From positions 1 to 64,000 of the IMG/VR virus record IMGVR_UViG_3300027793_000055: 64,000 bases of DNA. One strand, 5' to 3'. Positions within the stretch are counted from its first letter, which is position 1; each line of letters begins with the position of its first letter. Source of the DNA: a virus. The notes under the pieces are model-generated. The model ran no database searches. It was not told where the DNA came from and worked only from the letters and a program-made list of their open reading frames with translations. This document shows, one piece after another, positions 15,352 through 63,993 of this stretch. The position numbers were made by a program, and so were the translations under genes.

Positions 15352-15366
15352 GCCACACGAACTTTT

Positions 15367-16497
15367 TCACTCACCATTTTCATCTGATTCTGATGAATCC
15401 TGTTTATCATAGAATTGTGAGGCTTCTCCTTCTCTTTTATCAAACTTAAGAATAACTTCTTCATTCAACAATTCGAATATTCGCTCACGAAACTTTGGTT
15501 CTTTCATTTTAGCTGCCCAATCAGCAGAACGGAATTTTTCACTTGAACCATCACTATGTTCAAGTGTATTCCAAGCACCAACAGTTAGGCTTGGTGATGA
15601 TTTAATCGCTTCAAATAGTGATTCATCATCAAGAACACCAACACGATCTGCCCACATAATCTGGAATTCACAAGAACGACCCTGTGTACCAAATCGCGAT
15701 TTTTCTAATCGTGCTTTTACTAGTGAACCAATACGAAACCCTTTTGAATCATTAACAAAACTATCTTTTGCTTTTGAGCCAGTTAGCCAAATACGAAGAC
15801 TATAGGCATATGCTGGTGATTTACCGCCAGGTGTAAAAAACTTTTGTGACTGAGTCAGATACTTGGCGTTTCCTTCTGCTGCTAGATTTAATTTAAGCTG
15901 ATTAAGAATGAGTAGTGTTGATTTGCTTTCGGCAATTGGAATTGTTAATTTCGAGAAACCTTTTGAAAGAATACGTGCTTTCATGGCCATAGAAGACTGT
16001 GGATTAAAATCACCCTCAACATCTGTGACTGTTGGTGTCATCGCCAAAGAATCCCAAATAAACAAAAACCGGTTTCCACCATTCTTCAAAAGTTCTTCAA
16101 TTTGTTCTAAAACAGCTTCTACTGAAATTGCCTGAATATAAAGAAGGTTTTCTAGATCACAGCCAGCATTTTGCAAAAACTGTGGATCAATAGCACTTTC
16201 ACTATCAAAATACACCGGTACAATACCCATTTTTTGGGCATTTGCAGCTACTTGTGCTGCCATATAGCTTTTACCAGTTGCTTCTTCACCAGCAATTTCA
16301 CTAATTTTACCAACAGGAATACCGGCTTTTTTACCACGGCAAATAATTGAATCTAGCCAAGTTGATCCGGTTGATATCCACTCTGTTACTTCTGTAGGAT
16401 TTTCTTCTTCTAGATCATGAGCAACATTCATACCTGCTTTTTTATTCAGCAAGGTTCTCATTTCACTAATTGATAGTTTTCCGGCCTTAAGACCCAT
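15367..16497 (-). CDS. recA: RecA/UvsX recombinase
   Basis: STGS..LD, GKISEIAGEEATGKS, YFDSE, WDS, LNQ, TPGG motifs. Confidence 0.93.
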   Translation of the reverse strand: MGLKAGKLSISEMRTLLNKKAGMNVAHDLEEENPTEVTEWISTGSTWLDSIICRGKKAGIPVGKISEIAGEEATGKSYMAAQVAANAQKMGIVPVYFDSESAIDPQFLQNAGCDLENLLYIQAISVEAVLEQIEELLKNGGNRFLFIWDSLAMTPTVTDVEGDFNPQSSMAMKARILSKGFSKLTIPIAESKSTLLILNQLKLNLAAEGNAKYLTQSQKFFTPGGKSPAYAYSLRIWLTGSKAKDSFVNDSKGFRIGSLVKARLEKSRFGTQGRSCEFQIMWADRVGVLDDESLFEAIKSSPSLTVGAWNTLEHSDGSSEKFRSADWAAKMKEPKFRERIFELLNEEVILKFDKREGEASQFYDKQDSSESDENGE

Positions 16498-29363: not shown

Positions 29364-32183
29364 TCAAAGGTCATCAAAAGAAGCGCCACTATTTGTAATA
29401 ACAAAGTCGATACCAATAAACTCAATTGCGTAAGCTGGTTTGATAAAGATTTTTGCATACATAGTGTTTCTATCAATTAAATCTGGAGTGGTTGTTGTTT
29501 CATCAAGAACAACCTTATAATCAACGATACCACCACCTGACTTAGTGCTCTCCATTAATGGATTGACTTGGTTAAGGAAACGTTGCCAAGTTGTTTTAAT
29601 ATTTTGGTCAAATAGTAGACCAGAAGCAATACCTGAAATTTGTTTCTTGAGGAACAATACAAGTCTGCGTACATTGATTCTGTCAAGTGCAGATGGTGTA
29701 GCTTGCAAGGTCTTTTGACCAAATATAACAATACCTTCTGCTGGGAATCTTGCAATTGGATTGATATTGACTTCATAGAGATCATCACGTTGTGTTGCTT
29801 TTAGAACTTCACGAACGTCAGTTACAGTCAAACCAGCTGAACCACGGTCTAGACCGCCACGATTGAAACCAGCTGGAGCAAACCAAACTGCTGATACTTC
29901 TTGTGAAGAAGCCATAGTGCCAAGTGCTACAACAGATGGTGGTACCCAAAGATCGCCATTCTCACGTTGATCTTTAATCTTGACCCAAGGATAGTAAGCA
30001 CAAGCATAACTTGAGTTAAAGTCACGAGCCTTAACAGCATTAATGGTGTTTGTTACTGAACCTAGTCTTTCTTGTAGATTATCTTTTTCTACTAGATTTG
30101 TTTCTGCATCTGGGATATAACCACCGGCAACATCAATAATAGCTAGTGCATCAGCACGTGATTCACAGACTTCTATTACACGATTTGTTACTTTTTCATC
30201 TGTAACACCAGGAACTGTCATTAGATTCATATCTAGTGTTTCTGGATCAGCAACTGCTGCAATTGCTCTTCTTAGGGAATAAAGAGCATAATTTGTTTTA
30301 CCTTCAATATCTGAAACTCCTGCATTAGCTAGGAAGCTATTGCGGAATGGATCTTTTTCTGTTACACGTACACCATCGGTACCACCGAAAAGTGGCATAG
30401 TGAAGCGATTAAAGCCGGCATTAAGAACGTTCTTGTAACTTACATCTGAACCAGTTGCTGTGAATGAGTCACCAGCAGCACGTGAACCGGGTACCCAAAC
30501 CGCCAAAGTTGTTGAATCTACAGAAGCACTTACATCATCCAATGTAAATACTGGTGAATTTTGTGAACCTGTAGCAAGTGGATCAACTTCGTAAGAATCG
30601 AAACCAGCTGGTTTAGCTCTTAATAGATCTAGTACATCTTCATTAAAGACGCCATTTGCACCAAGTGAACAATTAATACCAAAATGTGTAGTAGCACCAC
30701 GTTGTGCTGCAGATTCAACCATTGGTATAGTTGGGAAAAGTAGTTCAACATCAACTGGGTTTGAAACAGAGCCACTAAATAGTGCAGCTACTTCTGAATT
30801 TACACCAGCAGCTAATTTGGCTGATACAAATTGAGGTGGACCAAAGAATCCGAAAGGTAGCAATTGTGCATCAAGAGCGCCTTGTTCAAGGAGTGAGTCC
30901 ATTTCAACACGAATAAAGTTTGAATTATTATCAAAATTACCAATTGTTCTGTGTTTTGCTTCAACATCATCCCAAATTGTCATTTTATCACCAATTAGTT
31001 TGGCAATAAAGTTTGGTGATGTTGGATCTAGATTGCAATTTGTAAATGTTTCTAGAACTTCCTGTCTTTTATCTGAATCATAAAGTTTACGAACTTTAAC
31101 AGTAAATGAACCATATTTGTTAAAGCTGCTATTTGATGGTTTAATATCTTCTATAGATACTTTAACATTCTTTTGTTCCCATTCGCCACTGCTATCGCCT
31201 TCTTCACCACCAAGAGTGGAGAATCTAAACAGTTTTGACATTAAAGATGGATCGAAAGAGTTAGTTGGAGCATCTAGATCTTGTGCTATAACCCAACCGG
31301 TTTTAGCTGGTTGAGCTTGTACGCCTAAATGATCACCAAGATTTGCAGAAGAAACATCTTGTAGAGCAACCAATGTAGCCATTACTTGTCCGGTGGCAGC
31401 TGCTGAACCGGTACCAATTTCTTCTCTTACAAAGGTTTCAAATGTCTCACCGAGCCAGTAGTTTTTTACTATTGCTGGTGGATTGATATCTGAGTTAGTG
31501 AGTACTGGATTTGTATTAAGTACTTTACGAATATGTTTAGCACTTGCTTTATTTAAATTAAAAGCTGTATCTACTTTTGTAGAGGCACCATCCATAACTT
31601 TAAGTCTAAACTCAAAGTCATCACCGGTACTCTTGACAAATACATTTGTACCAGATACCATACTACTACCAGTAAGATCGGTACCAACTAATTCTAGAGA
31701 ACCTGTAGCTAAATAAATAACAGCAGCCAAAGCGCCGGTTACATTTGAACCGGATGGAGCAACGAAAATACCCCAAGCGCCACCTTGTGAACTAGCTTCA
31801 CCAGAACCTGCAACCCAACCAGCTTTTGCTTCTTCGATATTATCTCTTTGTGGATGCTCAACACCCAGCAAACGTACAGCTGTTAAAGGTGAAGAATTTT
31901 TTAACCAAGCTTCTGCAGCATATGCAGCATAGGTTGGAGATTGTAATTGTCCAGTTCTCCATACATCGCTTCTTGTACTGTTAACAACACCGCGTGTTGG
32001 ACTACCAAAGGTGTTATCAAAATCAATATAGCTTTCAACTGTAACCGGTACCATACCTGGACCATGTTGAAATCTACCAACTACAACTGGACCGATTGCA
32101 CCAATATTGGCTGTTAATACGGAACGGTCGATTTCATTAATTTTTACACCCGGTGATACGAAGCGAAATCTTTTAGCTGTCAT
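29364..32183 (-). CDS. Tail sheath protein (gp18-like)
   Basis: SPGV..EID, WFAPAGFNRG, RDDLYEVNINPI, GQKTL, LDRINVRRL. Confidence 0.95.
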   Translation of the reverse strand: MTAKRFRFVSPGVKINEIDRSVLTANIGAIGPVVVGRFQHGPGMVPVTVESYIDFDNTFGSPTRGVVNSTRSDVWRTGQLQSPTYAAYAAEAWLKNSSPLTAVRLLGVEHPQRDNIEEAKAGWVAGSGEASSQGGAWGIFVAPSGSNVTGALAAVIYLATGSLELVGTDLTGSSMVSGTNVFVKSTGDDFEFRLKVMDGASTKVDTAFNLNKASAKHIRKVLNTNPVLTNSDINPPAIVKNYWLGETFETFVREEIGTGSAAATGQVMATLVALQDVSSANLGDHLGVQAQPAKTGWVIAQDLDAPTNSFDPSLMSKLFRFSTLGGEEGDSSGEWEQKNVKVSIEDIKPSNSSFNKYGSFTVKVRKLYDSDKRQEVLETFTNCNLDPTSPNFIAKLIGDKMTIWDDVEAKHRTIGNFDNNSNFIRVEMDSLLEQGALDAQLLPFGFFGPPQFVSAKLAAGVNSEVAALFSGSVSNPVDVELLFPTIPMVESAAQRGATTHFGINCSLGANGVFNEDVLDLLRAKPAGFDSYEVDPLATGSQNSPVFTLDDVSASVDSTTLAVWVPGSRAAGDSFTATGSDVSYKNVLNAGFNRFTMPLFGGTDGVRVTEKDPFRNSFLANAGVSDIEGKTNYALYSLRRAIAAVADPETLDMNLMTVPGVTDEKVTNRVIEVCESRADALAIIDVAGGYIPDAETNLVEKDNLQERLGSVTNTINAVKARDFNSSYACAYYPWVKIKDQRENGDLWVPPSVVALGTMASSQEVSAVWFAPAGFNRGGLDRGSAGLTVTDVREVLKATQRDDLYEVNINPIARFPAEGIVIFGQKTLQATPSALDRINVRRLVLFLKKQISGIASGLLFDQNIKTTWQRFLNQVNPLMESTKSGGGIVDYKVVLDETTTTPDLIDRNTMYAKIFIKPAYAIEFIGIDFVITNSGASFDDL

Positions 32184-33079: not shown

Positions 33080-33931
33080 CTATTCCTCAGTAATTTCAAA
33101 AATACCATTACCAAATGGTCCATCTTCAAAGATTTCAAATGCAAATGGTGATGTGTACCAAATACCACCTTCATTATAGTAGAATTTATTAGCTATTTGA
33201 AAAGGTGGTGGATGATAATCTCCCAAAGCTGTTAGATAAATGACACATCCTTTATAATTCTGTGGATTTTCATTATAATCGATAAATTGTGGGAGATCTT
33301 GAGAATTATTTGCAGCACTAATTTTTCTAATTGTACCACGACAGCCCTCGACAACATCTCCCATATTGACAACTTTACCATCTTCTGTCAATTCACGGAA
33401 TATTTCAAGAACCTGATCAATTTCTGCCGGGTATTCAAATAAACCTTTTCTTGCTGTAATACATTGTGATATTATTTCAAATCTGTGTTCAGCTTGTCCA
33501 AACAATTGACGAGGGATATTAGCTGTAACTATTTCATAAAAACGACCACCATAGAATACAAAATCGCCTTCACGAACAAATAAATTCTGATCCTGTGTTA
33601 ATCTTCTGCGATGAAAATTAACAGTTATTTTGGTTTTCTTGTCAAGACCAAACTGATCAGTGGCTGTTTCAATACCTTCAAATTTAACTAAAGCATGCAC
33701 ACGAACAGGAGGTAGAAAGTTTTTTTCTATTGCCTCTCCATAAACTGGATGGAAATTAGTATGTGTATAACTTATAGGAAAATAGAGAATTGTTTGACCA
33801 ATTACTCGTTCAATTACCTCATCATTAACTTGTTTAACAAGATCGCGTTCCTTTTCTCCAAGGAACATTGGTGGTGGAGGATTTGAAGGCTGTTCCCATT
33901 TATTAAATTTAGAATTCTTTTTTCTAGCCAT
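33080..33931 (-). CDS. Neck / head closure protein (gp14-like) with C-terminal extension
   Basis: ELIERVIGQ.ILYF..YGE..K.F, FHRRRL..VREGDF. Confidence 0.7.
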   Translation of the reverse strand: MARKKNSKFNKWEQPSNPPPPMFLGEKERDLVKQVNDEVIERVIGQTILYFPISYTHTNFHPVYGEAIEKNFLPPVRVHALVKFEGIETATDQFGLDKKTKITVNFHRRRLTQDQNLFVREGDFVFYGGRFYEIVTANIPRQLFGQAEHRFEIISQCITARKGLFEYPAEIDQVLEIFRELTEDGKVVNMGDVVEGCRGTIRKISAANNSQDLPQFIDYNENPQNYKGCVIYLTALGDYHPPPFQIANKFYYNEGGIWYTSPFAFEIFEDGPFGNGIFEITEE

Positions 33932-33940: not shown

Positions 33941-35221
33941 TCAACCAGTGAATATGACCATTGGTACTTTATCGATTGTTTTTTGAACATTCTCGCCAAT
34001 ATTAGCAGTTTGTTCAGCTAATTTATCATAAGTCATTTCTGCCAAGATAGTTTTCATTTCTTCGCGGAGAGCAGTCATTTCTTCTTTTGCTTGAGCTAGT
34101 AAAGAATCAGCATTTAATTTAACACTTTCTCCTGGAATTGGAACACTATCAAACTTGCCACGAATCTGTCCTAACATCTCTTTACAAATTGCAAGAGCAA
34201 AACGTCGAATCCACTGTTTACCAATTGAGTTTATATTTTCATATGGAATGTTGGTAAAAGGAAGTGTATTAATATTATTAACACCACCGGCTCTATCACT
34301 TTGAGTCGATGCTGAGCCACTTGGACCTGATTCACCATAACTAAACACACCTTGTGGAATAGTAAATTCAATCCAGATTGACTGTAAATCTGTGCCGGTT
34401 GGAATAGGAAACATTCGCAATTTATTATTTCTAATCTCATAAGAATAATGTGAGATACGTGTATAAATATTATCTTCATAAGCCATCGCTTGTGCTTTGT
34501 TGTGCCAAGCAGGAATAACTTCAAATGTGCTATCATCAGCAAATTGACCATAAGTACTTAAATTACCTACAGTATTTATACCACCATAATATCCATAGAA
34601 TCTCCACATAGCTCTTGGAGACTTATAATAAACTTTTCTTACTTCTACTTTTTTATCAATTAAACCAGCAAAAGGAGAACCGGGTATCTGACTGGCAGTT
34701 ACTAATGCAGTCTGAACATCATAGTCTTGTTGATCTCCCACAATTGGTATTGAAGCTGAAAATACTGTTAAATTACCGCCTACTCCTGCCATTTCAGACG
34801 TTCTTGTCATAACTTCTTTTGCATAACCAATATCAAAAGACGGTAATAATAGTTGTGGATTTTGCCCAGCTAATGCACTACCAGAAGAAAATTCACCATC
34901 ACTATTAAAAGTACCAGTTGGTGAGCCAAGAGAGTTAGCCAACACATTTCTTGATTGATGAACGTTGATTATATAACTGTATTCCAATACAGCTGCTTCA
35001 TAAGCTGCGTATACATTTTGTTCAGTTAACTCTATATCAAGTACATCGCCACCAAGCATTTTATATGTAAATGCAACCTGATCAACAGCGCCAGTTATAA
35101 AATCAGAATTTGTTGCATATATACCAAAAGGTAAACTAGCAGTAACACGACTAGCTGTACCAATAGCCGGTAATACAATTGCACTTATTTGACTTTTTGG
35201 TGCTAATACAGGTAATGCCAT
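33941..35221 (-). CDS. Neck / head-tail adaptor protein (gp13-like)
   Basis: LGGDVLDIELT..YE.A..EY, WIRRFALA..KEMLG.IRGK. Confidence 0.75.
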   Translation of the reverse strand: MALPVLAPKSQISAIVLPAIGTASRVTASLPFGIYATNSDFITGAVDQVAFTYKMLGGDVLDIELTEQNVYAAYEAAVLEYSYIINVHQSRNVLANSLGSPTGTFNSDGEFSSGSALAGQNPQLLLPSFDIGYAKEVMTRTSEMAGVGGNLTVFSASIPIVGDQQDYDVQTALVTASQIPGSPFAGLIDKKVEVRKVYYKSPRAMWRFYGYYGGINTVGNLSTYGQFADDSTFEVIPAWHNKAQAMAYEDNIYTRISHYSYEIRNNKLRMFPIPTGTDLQSIWIEFTIPQGVFSYGESGPSGSASTQSDRAGGVNNINTLPFTNIPYENINSIGKQWIRRFALAICKEMLGQIRGKFDSVPIPGESVKLNADSLLAQAKEEMTALREEMKTILAEMTYDKLAEQTANIGENVQKTIDKVPMVIFTG

Positions 35222-35268
35222 TTTAATATAACTCCTAAGTTATTTAGTAAATAGTTTTAATATTTATT

Positions 35269-35301
35269 AAAAACAAAACCCACCATATTTCAGGTGGGTT
35301 T
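35269..35301 (-). terminator. Repeated terminator copy 1 (aaacccacc-N8-ggtgggttt + T tract)
   Basis: Identical hairpin at 36837-36869 and 38257-38291. Confidence 0.85.
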
Positions 35302-35320
35302 ATAAATTTATTATCTTCTA

Positions 35321-36778
35321 TCAAACACCAGTTGTTGGATGTGAATCTGGCGGTGTAAAGTTTGTTGTATATCTTGCGATACCTTGAGTCAGCCTAAGAT
35401 CATCAATATAACCATTTAAATATCTCAAAGCACTATTGCTTCTATGAAAACCAACATAAAAAGTTGTAGGAAGTGTAGCTATAGAAGAAGCTAAACTTGA
35501 GCCTCTTAATATACCATTAATAAATAATCTCACAGTTGTTCCATCATTAGAAAGTGCAACATGGTTCCAACTGTTTAGAGAAACAAGACCGGCAGCCGTT
35601 GCGAATTGCCATATTGGAGTTTGAGAGTTTCCAAATCCATTTGCTGTCATACTTCCATTTAAATTTACAGCTAATTGAACTCTATTGATATTTGATGTTG
35701 TGGTGCCATTATAAAATAAACCACTACCATTTGTAGCATCTCCATAAGAATTAAGATAAAACCAGGTTTCTATAGTATAAGAGCCGCTTAGTTTAAGGTT
35801 TGAATTACTAAGAGAAAGATAATCGTTAGTTCCGTCAAAATAAGCACTACCAGTGATTGCTGTTACGATATTAGCAAGTGGCGACACGTCGCTGATTTGC
35901 GGTGAACCACGTCCTATTGTTATTGAATAGTTATTAGGTCCGTTGTCCTTGAATATACGTCCCTGGCAAGTTAATAATATCGTTCCAGAAATAGATTGTA
36001 GTGCAGTGGTTGGCGGGGAGAATGCAGACGTATAAACAGAAGTTCCACAAATTCTTAGATTTGATAGGTGGCAGTCGGTTCTGCCATAGTCGCCTCCGTT
36101 GGGATTTGGTGTTGAACCACCAATTGTGATGCTTTCTGCTGTTCCGTTATTTAACGGTGTATTAAATACTTCTTGTAACTCCAATACTCCATCTACAAAT
36201 ATTCTGTAAGTTGTACCTTGTTTGACAAAGGCTAGATGGTGCCAGTTGCCGTCATCTACGCGAGAAACAGAAAAGAATGACTTAATATTGACCGGCCATC
36301 CCGTACCGTGATACACGGTAAAATAAAACTTACCAACGTTGGTTCCAGACTCCATCACGCTGGCCACCCAAGAATTTCCTGTATCAGAATGCATGTCTGA
36401 TTTTGCCGCTATAGTAGCTCGCTGGGAATTAGAACTGCCACGGAACCATGTTTCAAATGTCCAATTTGTTCCTATATTTCCACCAACGATAGCGCCGTTG
36501 ACTAGTAGATAGTTTTTCCTTATGCTATCGGCTTGTGATGGAAAATAAATGCTCCATTTACCATCTTCTTTATTGTGCGGACTAAATGAGTCAATCCGGG
36601 TATTACCAAACCTTGAGATGGCAAGATTATTAACACTGCTGTCAACAAAAGTTGTGCTATTGTTAGCCCCGGCTGCTTTCAATAATAGTGATACATTTGA
36701 AAAATAAGGATCGGTTGTTGGAATATTTGTAGGCTCACTGCCAGTTGTTTGATTTTCTGCTTCACTATAAAAAAACAT
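35321..36778 (-). CDS. MFFY-leader protein with two LamG/concanavalin-A-like domains (putative virion decoration/adhesin)
   Basis: DPYFSNVSLLL..DSS, WHHLAFV..IFVDG, WNHVAL..LFING, GYIDDLRLT. Confidence 0.8.
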   Translation of the reverse strand: MFFYSEAENQTTGSEPTNIPTTDPYFSNVSLLLKAAGANNSTTFVDSSVNNLAISRFGNTRIDSFSPHNKEDGKWSIYFPSQADSIRKNYLLVNGAIVGGNIGTNWTFETWFRGSSNSQRATIAAKSDMHSDTGNSWVASVMESGTNVGKFYFTVYHGTGWPVNIKSFFSVSRVDDGNWHHLAFVKQGTTYRIFVDGVLELQEVFNTPLNNGTAESITIGGSTPNPNGGDYGRTDCHLSNLRICGTSVYTSAFSPPTTALQSISGTILLTCQGRIFKDNGPNNYSITIGRGSPQISDVSPLANIVTAITGSAYFDGTNDYLSLSNSNLKLSGSYTIETWFYLNSYGDATNGSGLFYNGTTTSNINRVQLAVNLNGSMTANGFGNSQTPIWQFATAAGLVSLNSWNHVALSNDGTTVRLFINGILRGSSLASSIATLPTTFYVGFHRSNSALRYLNGYIDDLRLTQGIARYTTNFTPPDSHPTTGV

Positions 36779-36836
36779 CTTTTATTTCTCCTGTCATTGA
36801 AGATAAATATAGATATAAATAGTTTTAGAATAATTC

Positions 36837-36869
36837 AAAAACAAAACCCACCATATTTCAGGTGGGTTT
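36837..36869 (-). terminator. Repeated terminator copy 2
   Basis: Same hairpin as copy 1. Confidence 0.85.
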
Positions 36870-36892
36870 GTGTTGGTAATTATACTTACTGT

Positions 36893-38197
36893 TTATTCTT
36901 CATTGAATACATAAGCAAGACCAGACTCATTGCCGCTTGTTGATTTTTCATCTCTCCACGCACCAACGATAACACGATCACCGGCAGAATTCATTGCAAC
37001 TGAATATCCAAACTGATCATCATTGGTTGCCAAACTTCCACTTAGGATAGGCTGCTGCTGTGTCCAGCCGGTTGTTCCACTAACAAATATATAAGCAAGA
37101 CCAGAAGAACCAACTCCACCACTACCAGTTATTTCGTCTAGACGAGCACCAACAATGATACGATCACCGGCAGAATTCATTGCAACAGACCAACCAAACC
37201 AATCATCAGTATTATTTGCAAAAGTTCCGCTTATGATGGGTTGTTGTGACCAACCACCAGTTCCACTTACAAATACATAAGCAAGACCTTCGTTGTAATT
37301 AGTTGCTTGGCTAACTCTTTCATCCAAATATGCACCAACAACAACACGATCACCAGCAGAATTCATCGCAACTGAATTACCAAATTGTTCATTGGAACTA
37401 GTTGCCAAGGTGCCACTTAGAACATGCTGCTGAGTCCAGCCACCAGTTCCACTTACAAATATATAGGCAAGACCTTCTGAGAGAGGGCCTCCGCTTCTTT
37501 CATCTTGCCCAGCACCAACGATAACACGATCACCAGCTGAATTCATTGCAACTGAATTACCGAATTGATCAGTTGAATTAACTGCTAAAGTTCCACTTAA
37601 TATATGTTGCTCTACCCATCCACTTGCTCCACTGACATATATATAAGCAAGTCCTTCTGAAATCTGGCCACCACTTCTTTCATCCAATTGGGCACCAACA
37701 ATAATACGATCACCTACGGAATTCATTGCAACTGCACTACCGAATTGATCACTAGTAGTTGCAAAAGTTCCGGTTGGGATAAGTTGTTGTGACCAACCAC
37801 CGGCTCCGCTGACGAATACATAAGCAAGACCTTGTGTGATGCTGGCTGGTCCCAATTCATCTAGCCGAGCACCAATAACAACACGATCACCAGCAGAATT
37901 CATTGCAACTGAATTGCCAAAATTATCATTTAAATCTATTGCAAAACTTCCACTTAGAACAATTTGTTCATTCCACCCACCGGTTCCACTAACATATATA
38001 TAAGCAAGCCCAGAAGAACCACTTCCGCCACTTCTTTCATCTTGCCACGCACCAACGATAACACGATCACCGGCAGAATTCATTGCAACTGAATATCCAA
38101 AATTGTCAGTTAAATCGGTTGCCAAAGTACCAGATAAAATCTGCTTTTCTTTCCAATTTTTTATTATATTTTCAATTATTTCTCTATAAAAAAACAT
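36893..38197 (-). CDS. MFFY-leader protein with seven FG-GAP repeats (7-blade beta-propeller)
   Basis: Seven counted repeats of FG.SVAMNSAGDR(V/I)(I/V)VGA..DE...GLAY. Confidence 0.88.
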   Translation of the reverse strand: MFFYREIIENIIKNWKEKQILSGTLATDLTDNFGYSVAMNSAGDRVIVGAWQDERSGGSGSSGLAYIYVSGTGGWNEQIVLSGSFAIDLNDNFGNSVAMNSAGDRVVIGARLDELGPASITQGLAYVFVSGAGGWSQQLIPTGTFATTSDQFGSAVAMNSVGDRIIVGAQLDERSGGQISEGLAYIYVSGASGWVEQHILSGTLAVNSTDQFGNSVAMNSAGDRVIVGAGQDERSGGPLSEGLAYIFVSGTGGWTQQHVLSGTLATSSNEQFGNSVAMNSAGDRVVVGAYLDERVSQATNYNEGLAYVFVSGTGGWSQQPIISGTFANNTDDWFGWSVAMNSAGDRIIVGARLDEITGSGGVGSSGLAYIFVSGTTGWTQQQPILSGSLATNDDQFGYSVAMNSAGDRVIVGAWRDEKSTSGNESGLAYVFNEE

Positions 38198-38256
38198 CTT
38201 TTGTATCCCATCCTTTACTAGCTTATTAGTAAGTGTAAATAGTTTTGTAATAGTTT

Positions 38257-38291
38257 AAAAAAACAAAACCCACCATATTTCAGGTGGGTTT
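38257..38291 (-). terminator. Repeated terminator copy 3
   Basis: Same hairpin as copy 1. Confidence 0.85.
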
Positions 38292-38310
38292 AAAAAATTA
38301 TTATCTTCTA

Positions 38311-38406
38311 TCAAGCACCAGCTACTTTTAACAATAACGATACACTTATAAAATATGTATCGGGTATGACTACTGATTAAATTGGGTCTGCTGCTTCACT
38401 ATGAAT
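38311..38406 (-). pseudogene. Internal-deletion remnant of a LamG-cassette paralog
   Basis: Reads HSEAADPI*SVVIPDTYFISVSLLLKVAGA*, matching YSEAE..DPYFSNVSLLLKAAGA, fused to the same 3' end (tgatagaagataataa) as 35321..36778. Confidence 0.7.
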
Positions 38407-38416
38407 GCACCTAAAT

Positions 38417-39082
38417 TTAGGCAATTTCATATCTAATAATTACAATACCAGATGCTCCAGCACCACCATTTTTACTATAGTATCGATGCCCCCATCGATC
38501 TCGTTCTCCACCGCCACCACCAGCGCCAGTATTTGCAATTCCAGGGAATCCAAATGAAGCTAGGCCACCACGACCACCGCCGCCAAGACCACCATTAGCA
38601 TTGCCACCAGCACCACCACCACCAGCATAATATTTTAAAGTTCCATCTATAGATGATTGTAAACCATTAATACCACCACTTGCGCCTACGCCGTTGATCT
38701 GATTCCTCGCTGAACCTTTAAAGGCACCGCCAGCGGCAGTAATATTAAAAGCCGATGATGGATTGCCAGAAGTTACAGAAAATCCACCAACAATTATCGG
38801 ATAAGATTGAGCAGCTAAAATTATAGAGCCGCTAATCATTTGACCGGCATCGCCACCATTACCATCATACTTACCAAGAATTCCACCAACAGACCCCTCA
38901 AAACCTCTACCACCACCGCCGCCGCCGCCAATAATCAAATATTCAACTAATCCCGAATATTCAATTGTTAAAGTACCATTTTGTAAAAATCTATGAACTC
39001 TGTAGGTTTTTCCATCAAGTGAAAATTGTTCAGTTATTCCACCACTACCTTCTAAAAATTCTGCTTCGCCATAAAAAAACAT
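38417..39082 (-). CDS. MFFY-leader glycine-rich domain protein (putative virion accessory)
   Basis: YRVHRF..GT..VEYLIIGGGGGGG..YYAGGGG..GIVIIRY pattern of phage Gly-rich domains. Confidence 0.8.
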   Translation of the reverse strand: MFFYGEAEFLEGSGGITEQFSLDGKTYRVHRFLQNGTLTIEYSGLVEYLIIGGGGGGGRGFEGSVGGILGKYDGNGGDAGQMISGSIILAAQSYPIIVGGFSVTSGNPSSAFNITAAGGAFKGSARNQINGVGASGGINGLQSSIDGTLKYYAGGGGAGGNANGGLGGGGRGGLASFGFPGIANTGAGGGGGERDRWGHRYYSKNGGAGASGIVIIRYEIA

Positions 39083-39140
39083 ATTTAGTGTCTCCTGTCG
39101 TCCAACGACAAATACAGATATAAATAGTTTTAAAATTTAT

Positions 39141-39169
39141 AAAACAAAACCCGCCATTTCTGGCGGGTT
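39141..39169 (-). terminator. Terminator after the major capsid gene (variant of the repeated hairpin)
   Basis: aacccgcca-gaaa-tggcgggtt followed by ttgtttt on the minus strand. Confidence 0.85.
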
Positions 39170-39196
39170 CTGCTAGAATATTAGTCTAATCTGTTA

Positions 39197-40915
39197 TCAG
39201 CCCAAGAGATCTTGAACAACAACTAGACCGAACATATCTGGACGTACCATCTTCTTAGCGTAACGGGTCATAACGCCTTTACGTGGTACGAAGTCTTCGG
39301 TACCAAAGATGGTTGGTGTGACTTGGAGTGGTACGTATGGAGCGTAGACATATCCGCTTTCGAGGAATTGTGTACCACGACGACCAACTAGCAACAAGTT
39401 ACGTGGGAAGTATGGGTCAACCATAACATCCCATTTCTTGCTGAGTGAACCAACTTTAACTGCACCGGCTGTGCCCTTGGCTTCATCTGGAACAACACCT
39501 GAAGCACGGAAGCCAGCAGTCATTTCGAGGATACTGGCAACTTCTGGTGAAGTTACGATAAAGTTAGCACCACCACGTAATGTTTTACGGTGGATTTGAG
39601 CACTTAGATCATTAACGGTTTCGAGTAGTGTTTCGTACCACATTGAAACGTTACCGGTAAAGTCTGCACCAAGTAGATCTTCATTTGCTGAAGCACTGAT
39701 TGGAGCACCAGTTGCTTTGTTGACAAAGCGACCTGGACGACGTGACCAGTGATAAACACCGGCTGTAGCGCCTTTAACGAGGTCTTCTAGGACTTCTTGG
39801 TCGATTTCAAGAGCGATGTGCTCGCTCATGATGCTTGTCAATTCGACTTCGGCGTCGAGATTGTGGTAAGCATTTAGATCTTGACCGAGTTCTGGTGTCC
39901 ACTTGACTTTGAGTTTTTTGGTTTTGGCACTAACTGAAACTGAATCAATTTTTACATCGATTTCTGGAATTTCAGAACTACCTTCAAGACCCCAAAGTTG
40001 TTGTGCTAATACAGAACCTAGAGCACCACCAACACCTAGATTATCATCTATTGGGAAGGTTATAGATTTAGTACCACTTGTTAATTCAGTTTGTAAAGCA
40101 CCAAGAACAGCTGCACTGTTTGCTTTAAATACTAAACGCAAATGAGTATAAGTATCACCACCAACATCGGCACCGCTAGCATCGCACTTAGCAGTTAAAC
40201 GACGTACTTGTGTACCATTTGTGACTGCAGTTGTAACTTTGATAGCAACTAGATTGCTCTTGTTTAGTTTTTGGCCACCAACTTCTAGTGAAGCTACTGG
40301 AACAACAACAGCAATAACACCGTCTGAACCTGAAACTAGATCTGGATCGAAACGTAGAGCACGATCAAGTGCTGGATCAGCACCAACTAATTGACCACCA
40401 CCAAGTACCGAGGTCAATGAGGCAGTTACTGAACCGGTTGGTGAGCTATAACCGTTGTTTAAGCTGTAGAATGATTTTTCGAGGTTAACACCAGTTAAAT
40501 CAACGCCGCCTGTGATTTGGCTAGCAACACGACCACCACCAAATACTGAATCATTTGCATCTAGACCTAAACGGCTTCCGCTGACTTGGAAGTCAAGGAA
40601 GAAGATTAGACCGCTTGGTAGACTCATTGGTTGTACTGAAACAAGTTCATTGGCAATCAATGAACCGAATACACGGCGAACGATTGGGAATGCAACAGCT
40701 GCGAAACCTTCAACGTCACCAGCACTCATTGCACTACTTTCTTTGAGTAGTTGTTTGGCTTGGTTTTCCAATAGAACGGCCATACCATTCTTTTGGCTCT
40801 CATCACGAAGACCTTCTAATAGACCGGTCTTTTCCCATTTTGCACGTAGAGCGGCACCTTCTTTTGTAAGGTCACGGTCAACGATATTCTCTGTTAAACG
40901 CTTTAAAATTGACAT
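39197..40915 (-). CDS. Major capsid protein (gp23-like)
   Basis: KWEKTGLLEGL, VQPMSLPSGLIF, KLKVKWT.EL.QDL.A.H, YAPYVPL, GVMTRY. Confidence 0.96.
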   Translation of the reverse strand: MSILKRLTENIVDRDLTKEGAALRAKWEKTGLLEGLRDESQKNGMAVLLENQAKQLLKESSAMSAGDVEGFAAVAFPIVRRVFGSLIANELVSVQPMSLPSGLIFFLDFQVSGSRLGLDANDSVFGGGRVASQITGGVDLTGVNLEKSFYSLNNGYSSPTGSVTASLTSVLGGGQLVGADPALDRALRFDPDLVSGSDGVIAVVVPVASLEVGGQKLNKSNLVAIKVTTAVTNGTQVRRLTAKCDASGADVGGDTYTHLRLVFKANSAAVLGALQTELTSGTKSITFPIDDNLGVGGALGSVLAQQLWGLEGSSEIPEIDVKIDSVSVSAKTKKLKVKWTPELGQDLNAYHNLDAEVELTSIMSEHIALEIDQEVLEDLVKGATAGVYHWSRRPGRFVNKATGAPISASANEDLLGADFTGNVSMWYETLLETVNDLSAQIHRKTLRGGANFIVTSPEVASILEMTAGFRASGVVPDEAKGTAGAVKVGSLSKKWDVMVDPYFPRNLLLVGRRGTQFLESGYVYAPYVPLQVTPTIFGTEDFVPRKGVMTRYAKKMVRPDMFGLVVVQDLLG

Positions 40916-42365: not shown

Positions 42366-42920
42366 TTAACGCTTGTTAATCATACATTTTATTAAATTGC
42401 TGTCACCGGATGCATCTTCAAGAGCTTGACCAATTATAATACCGGTTAAATCTCTTTTAAAAACACTCCATTTTTTCTTCTTGACTGCCATTCCGTGGCC
42501 TGTTATATTACTAGTACAGATAAAATCACCACGTTTAACTTCACCAGTTACTAAAACTAATTCTGCTCCAAAAACAACCGGTTCACTTTTGTTGTCTTTA
42601 GTAACACCCATAACAAGTATATCTTCTTCTTTTCTGCAGGGTTCTAGACCATTTTCACCCCAAACAAGCACAGTGCCATCACTATACATAGCAATTGATG
42701 GCGTTGAGAGGCCATATTCGAATATAGCACCAACTGTTGTTTGTACAGCATATATATCTTTCCAACGAAATGTAGGACTACCTAGATCTGTAATACCATT
42801 TCCATTAGGTGATAAATTTCCAGTAACCGCAACAGAACCGCTAAAACTAACAGTTCCATTATCTAATATTCTATGGATTACAGTGGTGCCTTTATATACG
42901 GCAAGACCTTTTGCTGCCAT
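42366..42920 (-). CDS. Short fibre-related protein with chaperone/peptidase G2-like C-terminal region
   Basis: DLGS..RW..IYA, VTGEVKRGDFICTS..G.GM..IIGQALE; N-terminus like that of the long fibre. Confidence 0.55.
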   Translation of the reverse strand: MAAKGLAVYKGTTVIHRILDNGTVSFSGSVAVTGNLSPNGNGITDLGSPTFRWKDIYAVQTTVGAIFEYGLSTPSIAMYSDGTVLVWGENGLEPCRKEEDILVMGVTKDNKSEPVVFGAELVLVTGEVKRGDFICTSNITGHGMAVKKKKWSVFKRDLTGIIIGQALEDASGDSNLIKCMINKR

Positions 42921-43034: not shown

Positions 43035-46000
43035 TCAGCCCATATAGAATGGAGCATCAAACCATTCACCATCTTGACGGAAGTACCAGCACTTGCCACG
43101 TGGGAAAGTACCTGTTGGATCGTCACTTACATCGGTGAGATAGAACATATCACCATCTTGTGCTGTACGGGCGGCAGCTTGTACACGTGTCATTCTGGTT
43201 GAGACAGCGCCTTGTGATACTTGCATATCACCGGTTGAAACTGTCAAACCACCAGCTACTGTTGCGCCACCAGTGACACTCAAACCAGCACTAGCTGAGA
43301 GTTGAGCGGCTGATAGTGAACCGGCGATACTAACTGAATCTTTTAGAGAAACAGTTACAACGCCTGCTGCACTTGCAACAGCGATATTGCTTGAACTGAC
43401 AATCGAGAATGCACCACCAAATGGATCAACAGACATACCGTTGACACTAAATGATGCACTATTGATTTGTGCTTGTAGACCAGCTTCAGCAGCGGTTGCA
43501 CGTTGGATTTCAGAAACTAAGTTGCCACTTAGTGTACTGATATCTGCACCAATATTTGTGACAGCAGCTAATAGAGCATTATCATTGGTTAGATCGATGC
43601 TGTTAACAAAGTCAACAACTTCTTTAAATGTATCGAGATCAACACTTGAGCCTGATAGAATTGCATCAATTCTACCTTTTTCAGTGTTAATTGCTGATTG
43701 TAAACCAGCTTCAGCGCCTTCAGCACGGGTTTTTTCTGCTGCAATTGCTGTAGCTAATGAACCTGATACTGAATCAAGATTACTTTGTACGAGTGCTTCT
43801 GCTGTTGCTGCTCTAGATGCTTCAGCAGCTAGTGCAGTTGCAAAAGAACTTGATAGTGAAGAATTAGCACTTGTTTGAGCCGAATCAAGACTATCAATAT
43901 AACCCTTTAGTGAGCCAGATGCTGAATCTAGGTTACTTTGTATTAATCCTTCTGCTGCTGTTGCTCTGGCAATTTCTGCAGCCAATGCTGAAGAAAGTGA
44001 ACTTGAAAGAGCTGATGTATCACCAGATGCGCCAGATTGAATTGCGTCAATAGCAGCTTTCAATGAACCTGAAACACTGTCCAAATTTGACTGTACAGCT
44101 GCATCACCCGCTATTCTAGCAGCTATTTCTGCTGCTAACGAACTGGAAACAGCACCAGATAGATCTGTTACTGCTGCAGCACGATCAGTAATTTCTTGTA
44201 CAAGAGCACCACTAATAGCGGCAACTCTTAATGTCAAGTCTTGTGCAGCACTTCCTGAACCATCCAAGAAAGCAGCGATTTCTTGAATACTGTTCAATGA
44301 AGAAGTGATTGTTGCTAGTGTTGCACTATCACCAACTATTGCATTAACAGTTGTTTCTAGTGAGCCAACACGAGTATTAAATGAACTAGAAAGTGAATTT
44401 CTAGCAGTTGTTTGAGCGCCTAATGCAGCATCAATACCAGCAAAGTGACCTAATGAACTGGTTACTGTACCAGACATTGTGTAATTTACTGGAACATGTG
44501 AAACGAATTGGCTTCCTGCATTATCCAAGAAATCATAAACAACACCACTACCAGTATCTAATGCTCTGGCAGTTAGAATGCCATTGCTTGCTCTACTAAA
44601 TGCTAGAGTTGTGTGAGATACAGAGTCAATCTTATATCTTGCTGTACCGGTTGTTGGACCAATCTTGTATACTGAAGCACCGCCTTGACTTGCTACAGTT
44701 ATTGCTCTAAATTGGGTGTTAACTATGCCCAAGTATGAAGTTGATGTACTGCCACCAATTGAACCGTTGGTAACAACACCACCCATTGTGCGGTCAATAT
44801 CATAAACACGGCAACCATCAATTTCACCAATGGTCATTGTTGGACCAATTACTGATGCAAATGTTGAGTTGTGTGCTTTAAGTGTTAATGAGCCGAAAGA
44901 TGGTACTGTGGTACTTGCTCCAAATGGAACAAAGCCGCAGTATGTTCTTGAACCTGAATCAGCATTACCGATTCTGGATGATTCAACTTCTAGAACAACC
45001 GCTGGTGCGCGTGCTGATGTGACAGTGTTGTCATGAATCATTACTACGCCGCCGAGGATGGCTGCATTATCAACTGAAACATAGAACTGACCGAAGTTTG
45101 AATCCCAATTATAGTTTGCACCACCATTTTCGAATTCAAGTGATGTTCTACCGGTTACTGTAACAACGTTCGCTGTTGGATCTGATTCAAGACCGCCACC
45201 TGCATCACCAGCGATTTCAAAACTCATTTGAGCAGAGAAGCCGGTCCATGGTGCTGGATATTGCGCCTTAAATGCTTCTAGATTTGATGCTGGGAAGTCT
45301 GCCTTCTTAACATCCATCTTAACGGTACCGGCGATTCTAGCGCCATTACCAACTAGGGCAACACGGGCACGCTTAAATCCTAGTACAACATCTTCTGCAT
45401 ATGTACCAGGAGCTAGTTTAAAGATTAGTTTTTCAGTAACGAATTTTTCAACATTAGCATTGTATGTTGTATTCGAAGAATTACCTAATGACTGAACTTG
45501 TGAATAAGCGTAGTTGATTGTTCTGAATGGTTTTAATAGTGTACCATTACCAACTGCGTCTAAACCACCAACAGGGTCAACGTGTACTACGTTACCATTA
45601 TATGCTTCTAGAGCATCTAATCTTACATCTAGTGCATCAATTGAACTTGATAGTGCTTGATCTGCTGCAATACGTGCAGAAGCTTCGGCACTAATAGCAC
45701 CAGATAGAGAGCCGGAAACTGAATCTAGGTTACTTTGAACCTGTGCTTCAGCAGCGGTTGCTCTGGTAACTTCAGCAGCTAGTGCTGAAGAAAGCGAACT
45801 TGAAACTTCACCGTCTCTTAAATCAATATAGGACTTTAGTGAACTTGAAAGTGCTGAAGTATCACCAGAAGCACCTGATTGAATTGCGTCAATAGCTGCT
45901 TTTAATGAACTTGAAACATTATTCAAATTTGTTTGGACTGCTGCATCGCCAGAAACACGATCAGTTGCTTCTTGTACCAAAGCACCACTGATACGGCTTA

Positions 46001-46553
46001 CTTCGGTACTCAAGTCAGCAACTAGAGTTACTGGATTGCCATCACCGTCTAGATATTCAGCTAGATTTTGAATGGTTGTTAATGCAGCAGAAATGCTGCC
46101 TGTATCACCAATCAATGTATTAACTGTTGTTTCTAGTGTGCCAACACGACCGGTCAAAGATGAAACGGCTGTGTTATTTGAAGCTGTATAAGCATTTAAT
46201 GCTGATGCAGCTGCATTAGCAACTGCAGTATCGCCAGCTTCTCTTGCTGCAGCTTCTGCACTATCTTGTGCATCAATATATGATTTTAGCGAACTTGAAA
46301 GAGCCGCCTCGCCATTTGCTGCTTCGTTTTTTAATTCAACTAAAATACCACCTAGTGTGGTATTTGAGAATTCACCGCCAACATTACCAACTAGAATATT
46401 GTTGGCTGATGCGGTTAGTTGACCGGTTACGTTAATGTTACCACTAACTGTTACTGCTGCTGGATTTACAGCGGTACCGAGTTCAACTCTACCATCTTGC
46501 ATTAATTTGTGGACTACTGCGGAGCCACTAAATACTGCTAAACCTTTTTTCAT
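43035..46553 (-). CDS. Long fibre/whisker-like structural protein (coiled-coil repeats, central beta-rich domain)
   Basis: 1172 aa, Ala/Ser-rich repeats, VHVDP..G.D..GNGT..KPFRTI beta-helix-like start, C-terminal YFRQDGEWF. Confidence 0.7.
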   Translation of the reverse strand: MKKGLAVFSGSAVVHKLMQDGRVELGTAVNPAAVTVSGNINVTGQLTASANNILVGNVGGEFSNTTLGGILVELKNEAANGEAALSSSLKSYIDAQDSAEAAAREAGDTAVANAAASALNAYTASNNTAVSSLTGRVGTLETTVNTLIGDTGSISAALTTIQNLAEYLDGDGNPVTLVADLSTEVSRISGALVQEATDRVSGDAAVQTNLNNVSSSLKAAIDAIQSGASGDTSALSSSLKSYIDLRDGEVSSSLSSALAAEVTRATAAEAQVQSNLDSVSGSLSGAISAEASARIAADQALSSSIDALDVRLDALEAYNGNVVHVDPVGGLDAVGNGTLLKPFRTINYAYSQVQSLGNSSNTTYNANVEKFVTEKLIFKLAPGTYAEDVVLGFKRARVALVGNGARIAGTVKMDVKKADFPASNLEAFKAQYPAPWTGFSAQMSFEIAGDAGGGLESDPTANVVTVTGRTSLEFENGGANYNWDSNFGQFYVSVDNAAILGGVVMIHDNTVTSARAPAVVLEVESSRIGNADSGSRTYCGFVPFGASTTVPSFGSLTLKAHNSTFASVIGPTMTIGEIDGCRVYDIDRTMGGVVTNGSIGGSTSTSYLGIVNTQFRAITVASQGGASVYKIGPTTGTARYKIDSVSHTTLAFSRASNGILTARALDTGSGVVYDFLDNAGSQFVSHVPVNYTMSGTVTSSLGHFAGIDAALGAQTTARNSLSSSFNTRVGSLETTVNAIVGDSATLATITSSLNSIQEIAAFLDGSGSAAQDLTLRVAAISGALVQEITDRAAAVTDLSGAVSSSLAAEIAARIAGDAAVQSNLDSVSGSLKAAIDAIQSGASGDTSALSSSLSSALAAEIARATAAEGLIQSNLDSASGSLKGYIDSLDSAQTSANSSLSSSFATALAAEASRAATAEALVQSNLDSVSGSLATAIAAEKTRAEGAEAGLQSAINTEKGRIDAILSGSSVDLDTFKEVVDFVNSIDLTNDNALLAAVTNIGADISTLSGNLVSEIQRATAAEAGLQAQINSASFSVNGMSVDPFGGAFSIVSSSNIAVASAAGVVTVSLKDSVSIAGSLSAAQLSASAGLSVTGGATVAGGLTVSTGDMQVSQGAVSTRMTRVQAAARTAQDGDMFYLTDVSDDPTGTFPRGKCWYFRQDGEWFDAPFYMG

Positions 46554-47470: not shown

Positions 47471-48070
47471 TCAATCAATTATATCATTAATGAGTCTGAC
47501 TAGTTTATCGCTCTTTGTCATCTCAGCAGGCTTTTTTGCTTCGCTTAAGTTAAGGAAGGCACCTTTTGTAGACGGTTCAGATACTATATCAAAACAAATA
47601 AGTTGTAAATCATCTTCTACAATTGTTTTGCCTTGTGATTCTCTAACTGAACCAAGTGCTCTTGAAGAAATGCCAAGTGTTACACCATTGCTAATAAGTG
47701 CTTTTAAAATATTACCAGCTGGTGTATCTAATATTTTTAATTTACCCATAACATCTTTTCCATTCCACCAAACATCTGTTACAATGTGTGAAACGTTTTT
47801 AAGATTAATTACTGAATCATCAGGATGATCCAACTCACCAACAGCACGATTTTGAGCAATTATATTTTTATAGTTTTCTATTTCTCTCTCAAGTGTCTTT
47901 TGTGGATAAACGCGACCATTACCATTTTGTGCATCTGCTCTTTGCATAACACCTGTTAAGAAAAAAGCCTTTTGTTCACGAACAAGTGTTTTTTCACTTT
48001 CGGTTAATAAGTCTTCACATTTACCACCATCACAAAGTTGGTAGAATTCTCTTAAAACATATTTACTCAT
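47471..48070 (-). CDS. Prohead maturation protease (gp21-like)
   Basis: NGNGRVYP, GELDHP, VSH, LGISSRALGSV, FDIVSEPS. Confidence 0.93.
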   Translation of the reverse strand: MSKYVLREFYQLCDGGKCEDLLTESEKTLVREQKAFFLTGVMQRADAQNGNGRVYPQKTLEREIENYKNIIAQNRAVGELDHPDDSVINLKNVSHIVTDVWWNGKDVMGKLKILDTPAGNILKALISNGVTLGISSRALGSVRESQGKTIVEDDLQLICFDIVSEPSTKGAFLNLSEAKKPAEMTKSDKLVRLINDIID

Positions 48071-50537: not shown

Positions 50538-51376
50538 TATTTAGTTGCCTCATTTACAAATTGTTGTATTTTAAGTACTTCTGTCAACATCTGGTGATCA
50601 ACCGGTTTCTTTTTAAAAGTCTCTATTTTTTCTAATAATTTATTAGTTTTGTCAGTAAGAAAATTATTATTTTTAAATTCTTCTGTTACTAATAGATTTT
50701 CAATATTATTCCTTAAACGACCAATTTCTTCATTTAAATAAACCTTTAAACTAACTCCATCATCAGTACCAGACATAACATAAAATGAAAGAAGTTCTTT
50801 CTGTTCCTTGATTAATGTTTCACCATATTTCTCATTAAATTTTTTTGCAAAAGAGGTGAAAACAATATTATCAACAGACTGCATATTTTTTGAATCAGCG
50901 ACCTCTTTATTTTTAGATATTAAAGAAGTTAACAAAGTCTGTTCAAGTAAAATTCTTTCTTTAACAGGTGCTCTCTTATTGAAAATTTGATAAATTGTTG
51001 CTAAATTTTTATAATCTGGTAAAAAATTATTAAAAACATTTGGTGTAACTGATTTATTTATTTTAGCTATTAATTTAGATTGTTCGCTGTAAATCTCTTC
51101 TTCATCTAGCTGAGAATATAGACGTACAGCCTCCTGAATTAACCTTTCGGCCAATTTAGGCTCCAAGTCAGAACTTTCATTTAATATAGAATAAAGTTGA
51201 AGTTCTTTTTGTAACGGTTTATCGGATGCAAAAAACTCTTTACAAATAGATACAATTGTATTTTTTGTTTTATTATCTTTGTTGACAACTGCTCTAGTTA
51301 ATTCTTTTACTAAACTTTCATATAAAAAAGCTGTATTACGCTTTTTATTGTGCTTTAGTTTGCTTTTTTCTTGCAT
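50537..51376 (-). CDS. Conserved hypothetical protein downstream of portal
   Basis: KHNKKRNTAFLYE N-terminus; helical. Confidence 0.7.
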   Translation of the reverse strand: MQEKSKLKHNKKRNTAFLYESLVKELTRAVVNKDNKTKNTIVSICKEFFASDKPLQKELQLYSILNESSDLEPKLAERLIQEAVRLYSQLDEEEIYSEQSKLIAKINKSVTPNVFNNFLPDYKNLATIYQIFNKRAPVKERILLEQTLLTSLISKNKEVADSKNMQSVDNIVFTSFAKKFNEKYGETLIKEQKELLSFYVMSGTDDGVSLKVYLNEEIGRLRNNIENLLVTEEFKNNNFLTDKTNKLLEKIETFKKKPVDHQMLTEVLKIQQFVNEATK

Positions 51377-54987: not shown

Positions 54988-55020
54988 TAAAAAACCCAAC
55001 TATTTTAAATAGTTGGGTTT
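54988..55020 (-). terminator. Terminator hairpin containing an ACTATTTA motif upstream of terL
   Basis: aaacccaactatt-N3-aatagttgggttt + T tract. Confidence 0.75.
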
Positions 55021-55040
55021 CTAGCTTAATTTAAGGGGTT

Positions 55041-63666: not shown

Positions 63667-63993
63667 TTAGGCAGGAAATCCTCGACCTTCAATTTCTATT
63701 TCTAATTGGACACCACTTCCGGAAACTACCAAAGTATCAGTCAGATCTAAAAAACCACTATACGATAGAGTAAAACCTGCCGTTAATGGATCTCCAAAAA
63801 ATATTAAATTTGGGTTATCAATAGAAAAACCTGGATTACCAATACTGGCAATTGCCGTGAAGCCTTCGCCTTCCGGTACGTTGAGTGCTTGAACACTAAA
63901 AAAAACTGAAGAACCGGCATTTATTGTTGCTGTTGATGGTGTTATTACTAATTCAACCGGTTGCTGTGTTTCTATAGATCGATAAAAAAACAT
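63667..63993 (-). CDS. MFFY-leader small beta-rich (Ig-like?) protein
   Basis: Starts ATG TTT TTT TAT like the cassette genes; beta-strand pattern. Confidence 0.6.
   Translation of the reverse strand: MFFYRSIETQQPVELVITPSTATINAGSSVFFSVQALNVPEGEGFTAIASIGNPGFSIDNPNLIFFGDPLTAGFTLSYSGFLDLTDTLVVSGSGVQLEIEIEGRGFPA

Follow-up and report, generated by a model that had tools for sequence, protein, structure and literature searches.

The stretch of DNA analysed here, which we call the window, comprises bases 1-64000 of the complete 187,750-bp IMG/VR virus record IMGVR_UViG_3300027793_000055, the genome of an uncultivated T4-like myovirus. The whole record has a G+C content of 34% and carries nearly all of its genes on the minus strand. 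Our subject is an array of three adjacent minus-strand genes, A, B and C, which lies between the gene for the gp23-type major capsid protein and that for a gp13-like neck protein (Table 1). Each of the three begins ATG TTT TTT TAT, and their products share the N-terminal leader MFFYxE ahead of unrelated domains. An earlier note on this DNA had described these starts and their setting, and both hold up, the borders matching Gp23 and T4 gp13. The string ATGTTTTTTTAT occurs four times in the window, always on the minus strand (36767-36778, 38186-38197, 39071-39082 and 63982-63993), whereas shuffled sequence predicts 0.10 copies, and every copy opens a long open reading frame (ORF).

The domain assignments in that note were also right: gene A matches Gly_rich_2, gene B has seven FG-GAP_2 matches, which appear in its DNA as seven repeats of about 180 nt, and gene C has two Laminin_G_3 domains (LamG, of the concanavalin A (ConA)-like lectin type). 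The AlphaFold2 (AF2) model of A has a mean predicted local distance difference test score (pLDDT) of 90.8, with an average of 55 over residues 1-10; that of B has a predicted template modelling score (pTM) of 0.86, and its residues 1-10 average a pLDDT of 39. In these models the MFFYxE tag is predicted to be disordered and to lie outside the fold of A and of B. The top Foldseek matches of the gene A model were the Pam3 gp24 tail fibre (PDB 7ypx, E 1.4e-5), with which it shares a TNF-like and glycine-rich receptor-binding module, and tail-tip proteins of mycobacteriophage Bxb1. At its N-terminus Pam3 gp24 carries an alpha-helical domain that docks it to the baseplate (PMC9608196). In contrast, gene A presents the fibre tip without such a domain, and the MFFY leader, which is all there is of its N-terminus, occupies that place. 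By annotation, the PHROG families into which gene C falls are those of a virion structural protein or a baseplate wedge subunit, and its homologues in cyanophages are listed as virion structural proteins. Judged by predicted folds and family matches, A and C are typical of the particle exterior. The array proteins have 221-485 amino acids (aa) and isoelectric points (pI) of 6.7, 4.2 and 6.3; MFFY-tagged genes in relatives reach 766 aa. A tblastn search with gene A against cultured phages gave no match, probably as a result of low-complexity filtering.

A regulatory unit of roughly 110 nt precedes A, B, C and the neck gene alike. Its layout is constant: a GC-rich hairpin with a T run, the motif AAAACTATTTA, about 30 nt, a purine-rich Shine-Dalgarno sequence (GGAG before A, C and the neck gene, AGGA before B) and the ATG. 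The earlier note had counted four copies of the same unit. The four copies of AAAACTATTTA are exact, but only three of the hairpins are identical (over 26 nt); the one behind the capsid gene departs from them in both stem and loop, and relatives carry this same variant at that place. All have the form of intrinsic terminators, with GC stems, GNRA-like or 8-nt loops and then T runs, and their stem changes are compensatory. A near-identical stretch reported between two of the units is real and measures 87 nt (38235-38321 against 35247-35331). It is not the case, as had been supposed, that each MFFY gene stands behind a unit. The fourth unit precedes the neck gene, whose product begins MALP and not MFFY, and the fourth gene with the start, at 63667-63993, has no unit and belongs to a second cluster.

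For comparison we used 80 related loci, gathered via a capsid protein 56-92% identical to that of the window. No -35/-10 pair was found inside the units; the conserved motif is instead CTATTTA, common to neck and sheath genes. In nearly every lineage the gp13-like and sheath starts have it 20-45 nt ahead of them, while the surrounding sequence differs. The window, too, has it before the sheath gene, with close variants before the scaffold gene and other head genes. From this position and conservation, that is, from phylogenetic footprinting rather than transcripts, we read CTATTTA as the late-promoter core of the clade. The early genes of the same genome have sigma-70-like promoters embedded in stem-loops, much like the promoter early stem-loops (PeSLs) of T4-type phages, which are repeated composites of stem-loop terminator and promoter that serve as mobile regulatory cassettes (Arbiol 2010, PMC2839356; Comeau 2014, PMC4122927). 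Such promoters (TTGAC..., 17 nt, TA..AT), in or before GC-rich stem-loops, occur in the window at 2630-2745, 4634-4715, 15152-15366 and 17314-17404, and further promoter stem-loops of this PeSL-like kind occur at genome positions 148833-148953, 150600-150794, 152502-152593 and 154585-154662. A terminator hairpin before the terminase gene (55000-55030, minus strand) carries the late motif inside its own stem (…CCCAACTATTTAAAATAGTTGGG…).

Around the array the gene order is stable. The capsid gene, the gp13-like gene, two further neck genes (gp14/15-like) and the sheath gene form a backbone that is constant in all relatives, with a capsid orthologue in 80/80 loci and the gp13-like orthologue downstream of it. 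The junction between capsid and gp13-like gene, by comparison, holds from 0 to 5 genes. Its content varies even at 88-92% capsid identity, with one gene in L006, two in L007 and L008, and three plus a fossil in the window; the cassette array with conserved flanks that had been proposed is thus borne out. Within the two sub-clades that carry the FFY leader, L006 has one LamG gene of 456 aa, L007 and L008 have genes of 766 and 226 aa, and L009 has one gene. The junction of L026 holds a GIY-YIG endonuclease gene, a LamG gene of 265 aa and an orthologue of B (65% identity in L024 and L026), that of L028 five tandem cassettes, and those of L023 and L025 none. The GIY-YIG gene, which resembles homing endonucleases, stands directly after the capsid gene in L024, L026 and L030 and has a paralogue near the primase gene of the window (61898-62605); it may promote exchange at the junction.

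The comparison with L006 is a convenient example of how such differences are bounded. The capsid DNA of the two phages is 84% identical, and homology spans the capsid gene, its terminator and the promoter before ending at 39113. It returns at 35409, 88 nt before the stop of gene C (the last 30 codons), and runs on by way of terminator and promoter into the neck genes, so that the exchanged segment has its ends within conserved units. Measured against L006, L008 and L009, the breakpoints fall at 39113-39197 and 35409-35429 of the window, within extended homologous stretches and at no fixed crossover point. In a fossil of a collapsed LamG cassette (Table 1), a decayed leader (…SEA…) is followed by about 30 LamG codons that include stops and then by a LamG-type stop whose 3' flank leads into the hairpin. 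The fossil occupies the place at which L024 and L026 have the 265-aa LamG gene, ahead of their B orthologue. A comparable remnant, a 30-codon MFFYKE mini-ORF, lies in L029 just upstream of position 11970. Identity among the five units of L028 is 75-95%, and 85-95% among the last four; four of the five share 80-84% identity with unit C of the window, at a capsid DNA identity of 70-73% between the two phages. Recombination between repeated units is likely to be the work of a UvsX-like recombinase, for which the genome has a gene. Taken together, the breakpoints, the repeated units, this recombinase and the lack of an integrase fit homologous recombination of the PeSL kind and not an integron, as far as can be read from the genomes compared. 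We are confident in the cassette reading at the level of DNA.

The likeness to PeSLs is close. Here too a composite of about 100 nt (terminator stem-loop, promoter and Shine-Dalgarno) ends at a start codon and is repeated in a hyperplastic region, its copies flank single non-core genes, and the repeats are where the insertions, deletions and replacements that distinguish close relatives have their ends. There are also differences: CTATTTA would be a late-type element where PeSLs have a sigma-70-like early promoter, the repeat runs into the ORF as a conserved N-terminal peptide, and the genes encode large binding proteins instead of small ORFans.

The MFFY start is strongly enriched at N-termini and stands on unrelated cargo domains, as the earlier note had expected. 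The genome has seven genes with an FFY leader, namely A, B, C and four in the second cluster. Among the homologues of A, B and C at the junction in relatives, MFFY is the start of nearly all; one begins MLAFYRIE instead and one has an extended start. The eight closest homologues of gene A in a large protein database (44-62% identity), which were found by their domain, all start MFFY as well, although residues 5-12 vary. In more distant homologues of A the N-terminus is either long and fibre-like or a short extension of another kind. Those from other phage groups (P0010-P0013) are extended by 25-40 aa that contain a loose S-F-x-L-N-like motif, and these extensions may serve other lineages as docking peptides. 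From IMG/VR and the related loci, a pattern scan gave 41 distinct leaders. Position 5 is free among them (S, R, N, T, K, G, Q or A), Glu6 is present in 35/41, position 7 is filled by A, P, I, S or N (Pro in 8/41), and a second Glu at position 8 occurs in 6/41; Y-x-E makes up tag residues 4-6. Synonymous codons occur (TTC three times, TAC four times) with F and Y kept. TTT accounts for 79 of the 82 F codons, against 79% genome-wide, where TAT stands at 84%. The tagged cargo, from three or more loci, includes a large LamG super-group, often with a first domain that by eye is immunoglobulin (Ig)-like, FG-GAP propellers, the Gly-rich group and five orphan families, about eight groups in all. No MFFYxE genes were found in complete genomes of other sub-clades; G002 and G005, two complete relatives that lack them, are too divergent overall for differences in gene content to point specifically to a docking partner. 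A search of the phage literature for MFFY found nothing.

The tag has other homes. The second cluster of four genes lies at genome positions 63667-66701 (window 63667-64000; 667-3701 in L086) and so extends past the window, between tail-fibre genes with a RuvC-like resolvase gene and the primase gene. Its products of 85, 251, 244 and 108 aa start MGLFFYRQ, MGIFFYRE, MFFYRQ and MFFYRS. The last two boundaries share an abutting 29-nt stop/start junction (…AAATGGGGTATATAATATG…) with neither terminator nor promoter, and the two MG(I/L)FFY starts look like this junction minus 7 nt, a change that would create a new ATG. In five relatives (L149, L161, L165, L173 and L189) the tag has a third locus, flanked by two endolysin-type genes that are orthologous to 4716-5168 and 3465-3968 of the window. 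At this site (3465-5168) the window has an untagged gene of 157 aa.

We propose that the gp23/gp13 junction is a hyperplastic array of late-gene cassettes. Each cassette would be a late transcription unit of its own, made up of the terminator of the preceding gene, CTATTTA, a ribosome site (mostly GGAG) and an ORF, and the ORF joins an M-F-F-Y-x-E leader to a variable binding module, be it a LamG lectin, an FG-GAP propeller or a TNF-like/glycine-rich fibre tip. The repeated units, the conserved LamG 3' ends and the leader codons would be substrates for the UvsX-type system of the phage, so that whole genes could be duplicated, deleted or replaced while their neighbours are left undisturbed. 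The unstructured MFFYxE tag would then plug exchangeable receptor-binding or lectin modules into one common outer site of the virion, on the tail or baseplate or at the neck. The universal dock suggested in the earlier note would fit cargo of such an external, receptor-binding kind. There is a precedent of a kind in KP32-type Klebsiella podophages, in which a conserved N-terminal peptide of the receptor-binding protein RBP2, the one part that these exchangeable proteins keep, suffices to mount foreign binding domains on the virion (PMC6872550, PMC13352976). In both cases a short N-terminal peptide is conserved while the receptor-binding modules behind it are unrelated. The KP32 peptide, however, is about 29 residues long, belongs to a podovirus and has a T4gp10-like branching domain as its partner, whereas the tag has 6-8 residues, belongs to a myovirus with at most seven tagged proteins per genome, and has a docking role that is a candidate one. 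External docking is a role for the tag to which we give about an even chance, and the same holds for the proposal as a whole, array and docking tag together. Its broadest form, in which MFFYxE is a universal plug for a virion socket and the particle carries a changing set of up to seven modules gained by recombination at late-promoter cassettes, is put forward tentatively, at somewhat under even odds.

Several points weigh against this proposal. That the FFY proteins are bound to the virion, that the tag is what attaches them and where they would dock are all things that we infer. The gp9/10-type domain (PF07880, T4 gp10-like) was not detected, in a search with no positive control. Six to eight residues make a very short tag for a stable anchor. 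The fraction of C-ending codons is 0.09 in A and 0.16 in B against 0.55 in the capsid gene; this ordinary codon use makes a very high copy number of A and B unlikely, although the proxy is not decisive. The invariance of residues 1-4 among the 41 leaders is circular, as the pattern required MFFY, and the independent evidence is that from the junction homologues and the domain-found homologues of gene A. Part of the leader conservation could lie at the level of DNA or RNA or come about through gene conversion. As for the late-promoter assignment, a search of the genome with T4 gp55 found no homologue. A 192-aa protein encoded beside a gp47-like gene was considered as a gp55 candidate and rejected, being without PHROG support. 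Nor is there help from culture. The closest cultured phages are distant, with capsid identities of 36-50% (Microcystis phage Mel-JY01, Rhodothermus phage RM378 and Flavobacterium phage immuto), and since none was found with a capsid protein more than about 50% identical, a virion proteome cannot be borrowed from one.

What else could the array and its leader be? The earlier note had likened the array to an integron, and it is true that repeated hairpins separate single-gene cassettes, as attC-like sites would under site-specific capture. However, integrons rely on the tyrosine recombinase IntI, and a search for this family (PF00589) found no member in the complete 187.7-kb genome, while the control search was positive in 14/14 reference genomes. 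Moreover, every cassette brings its own terminator, CTATTTA and Shine-Dalgarno in place of a common Pc promoter; with repeats that are terminator-plus-promoter units and not attC sites, and breakpoints that point to homologous recombination, we have dropped the comparison as having next to no chance of being right. Hardly better placed is a second suggestion from the same source, that the T7 run after the ATG is a slipped-strand ON/OFF switch which often gains or loses a base and so toggles the cassettes. Although a seven-base homopolymer does stand directly 3' of each start codon, all 14 distinct in-context starts in relatives (in assembled sequences) have T7, with no T6 or T8, and in 3/41 leaders TTC breaks the run with the ORF intact. 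Seven bases are in any case short for frequent slippage, and two F codons followed by Y yield T7 automatically at the codon frequencies of this genome, so that we regard a switch as very improbable.

The more serious alternatives concern the peptide. In the main rival to external docking, MFFYxE would be a counterpart of the capsid targeting sequence (CTS) of T4 internal proteins, MKTYQEFIAE, and load otherwise unrelated cargo onto the scaffolding core of the prohead, after which the gp21 protease would cut off the tag and the cargo would be injected with the DNA. The T4 CTS is likewise a short N-terminal tag, of 10 residues, on diverse and rapidly exchanged proteins, and Tyr4, which coincides with the tag as does Glu6, matters for its targeting (PMC9026906, PMC3012670). 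The array adjoins head genes, and a gp21-type prohead protease, an acidic scaffold-like protein and the gp23 capsid protein are all encoded. But the cargo is of the extracellular-binding type (LamG lectin, FG-GAP propeller, receptor-binding tip of a tail fibre), and since such proteins belong on the outside of the particle, external docking is favoured over an interior tag. The T4 internal proteins are also small, basic and DNA-associated, a description that the array proteins do not match in size or pI; no clear cleavage site of the canonical L/I-x-E kind follows the tag, and the Pro7 of some leaders would be rejected at P1' by most proteases; the units are read as late-only, and other FFY genes adjoin tail-fibre genes or sit between lysis genes. 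An internal tag is thus quite unlikely. It is also possible, if doubtful, that the peptide has no function: its codons may simply ride with the recombining unit through duplication and gene conversion, or the U-rich AUG UUU UUU UAU may be selected as an unstructured start that favours initiation, and the cargo proteins would act on their own, virion-bound or not. The excess of TTT in the leaders is in keeping with this, as are the homogenised units within one genome (L028) and the position of the second-cluster tag, which is itself inside a DNA repeat, the 29-nt junction. Yet the tag is the sole element common to three DNA contexts (late-promoter unit, abutting junction and MG(I/L)FFY starts), and F, F and Y survive synonymous changes while codon 5 varies and Glu6 stays. 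The capsid gene, as the most highly expressed late gene, lacks this start, and the homologues of gene A, at 44-62% identity, all retain MFFY although residues 5-12 diverge.

PeSL-type shuffling, CTS-like tags and docking peptides of receptor-binding proteins are known kinds of system, here combined in one. If the docking tag is real, this phage mounts exchangeable binding modules on its particle by an unusually short handle, and we know of no described case of comparable short-handle docking in a T4-like myovirus. The tag would amount to a natural plug-and-play host-range system with a tag of six residues, would explain how uncultivated aquatic myoviruses vary their binding without changing core structural genes, and would offer a simple design rule for engineered phage display or host range. 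The array itself would extend the PeSL idea, that repeated regulatory units are vehicles of gene shuffling, from early genes to late genes of structural type, and CTATTTA would define a late-promoter core for a large clade that is known solely from metagenomes.

Table 1. Features of the array, its regulatory units and its surroundings (window coordinates)
Feature	Position	Strand	Basis
Cassette gene A, 221 aa: MFFYGE leader, TNF-like and glycine-rich fibre-tip module	38417..39082	minus	Pfam Gly_rich_2; AF2 model; Foldseek
Cassette gene B, 434 aa: MFFYRE leader, seven-bladed FG-GAP beta-propeller	36893..38197	minus	Seven FG-GAP_2 matches
Cassette gene C, 485 aa: MFFYSE leader, linker, two LamG (ConA-like lectin) domains	35321..36778	minus	Two Laminin_G_3 matches
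Fossil of collapsed LamG cassette	38292..38416	minus	Local alignment to gene C 5'/3' ends; frame translations
Putative late-promoter motif AAAACTATTTA, cassette A	39121..39131	minus	Exact match
Putative late-promoter motif, cassette B	38236..38246	minus	Exact match
Putative late-promoter motif, cassette C	36816..36826	minus	Exact match
Putative late-promoter motif, neck gene	35248..35258	minus	Exact match; conserved in relatives
Terminator hairpin after capsid gene, variant type (CCCGCC / AGAAAT / GGCGGG + T run)	about 39147..39172	minus	Hairpin scan
Terminator hairpin, identical copy 1 of 3	38266..38291	minus	Sequence comparison
Terminator hairpin, identical copy 2 of 3	36844..36869	minus	Sequence comparison
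Terminator hairpin, identical copy 3 of 3	35276..35301	minus	Sequence comparison
MFFYRS gene, 108 aa, last member of second FFY cluster	63667..63993	minus	Abuts upstream FFY gene without terminator/promoter unit
Major capsid protein (T4 gp23 type), upstream border of array	39197..40915	minus	Pfam Gp23, E 7e-69; PHROG major head protein
gp13-like neck protein, 426 aa, downstream border of array	33941..35221	minus	phmmer to T4 gp13 (9mkb, 9lu4), E 2e-5
UvsX-like recombinase, likely enzyme for recombination between repeated units	15367..16497	minus	PHROG UvsX-like recombinase, E 8e-52
Large terminase	53391-54983
Portal	51345-53387
gp21-type prohead protease	47471-48070
Sheath	29364-32183

The wider neighbourhood is that of a T4-like structural region. 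In the direction of transcription the order is terminase, portal, protease, a 1172-aa fibre-like protein (43035-46553), a 184-aa protein (42366-42920), the acidic scaffold-like protein, capsid, A to C, the neck genes and sheath, followed by tube, hub and tape measure. The two further neck-region genes stand between the gp13-like and sheath genes, the nearer at 33080-33931. No similarity was found between the 1172-aa fibre-like protein and the gp13-like protein. Between the C-terminus of the fibre-like protein and the C-terminal part of the product of 33080-33931, a neck-region protein, there is a weak resemblance (BLASTP E 0.002), and the fibre-like and 184-aa proteins have an N-terminal module of about 45 aa in common (…KGLAV…).

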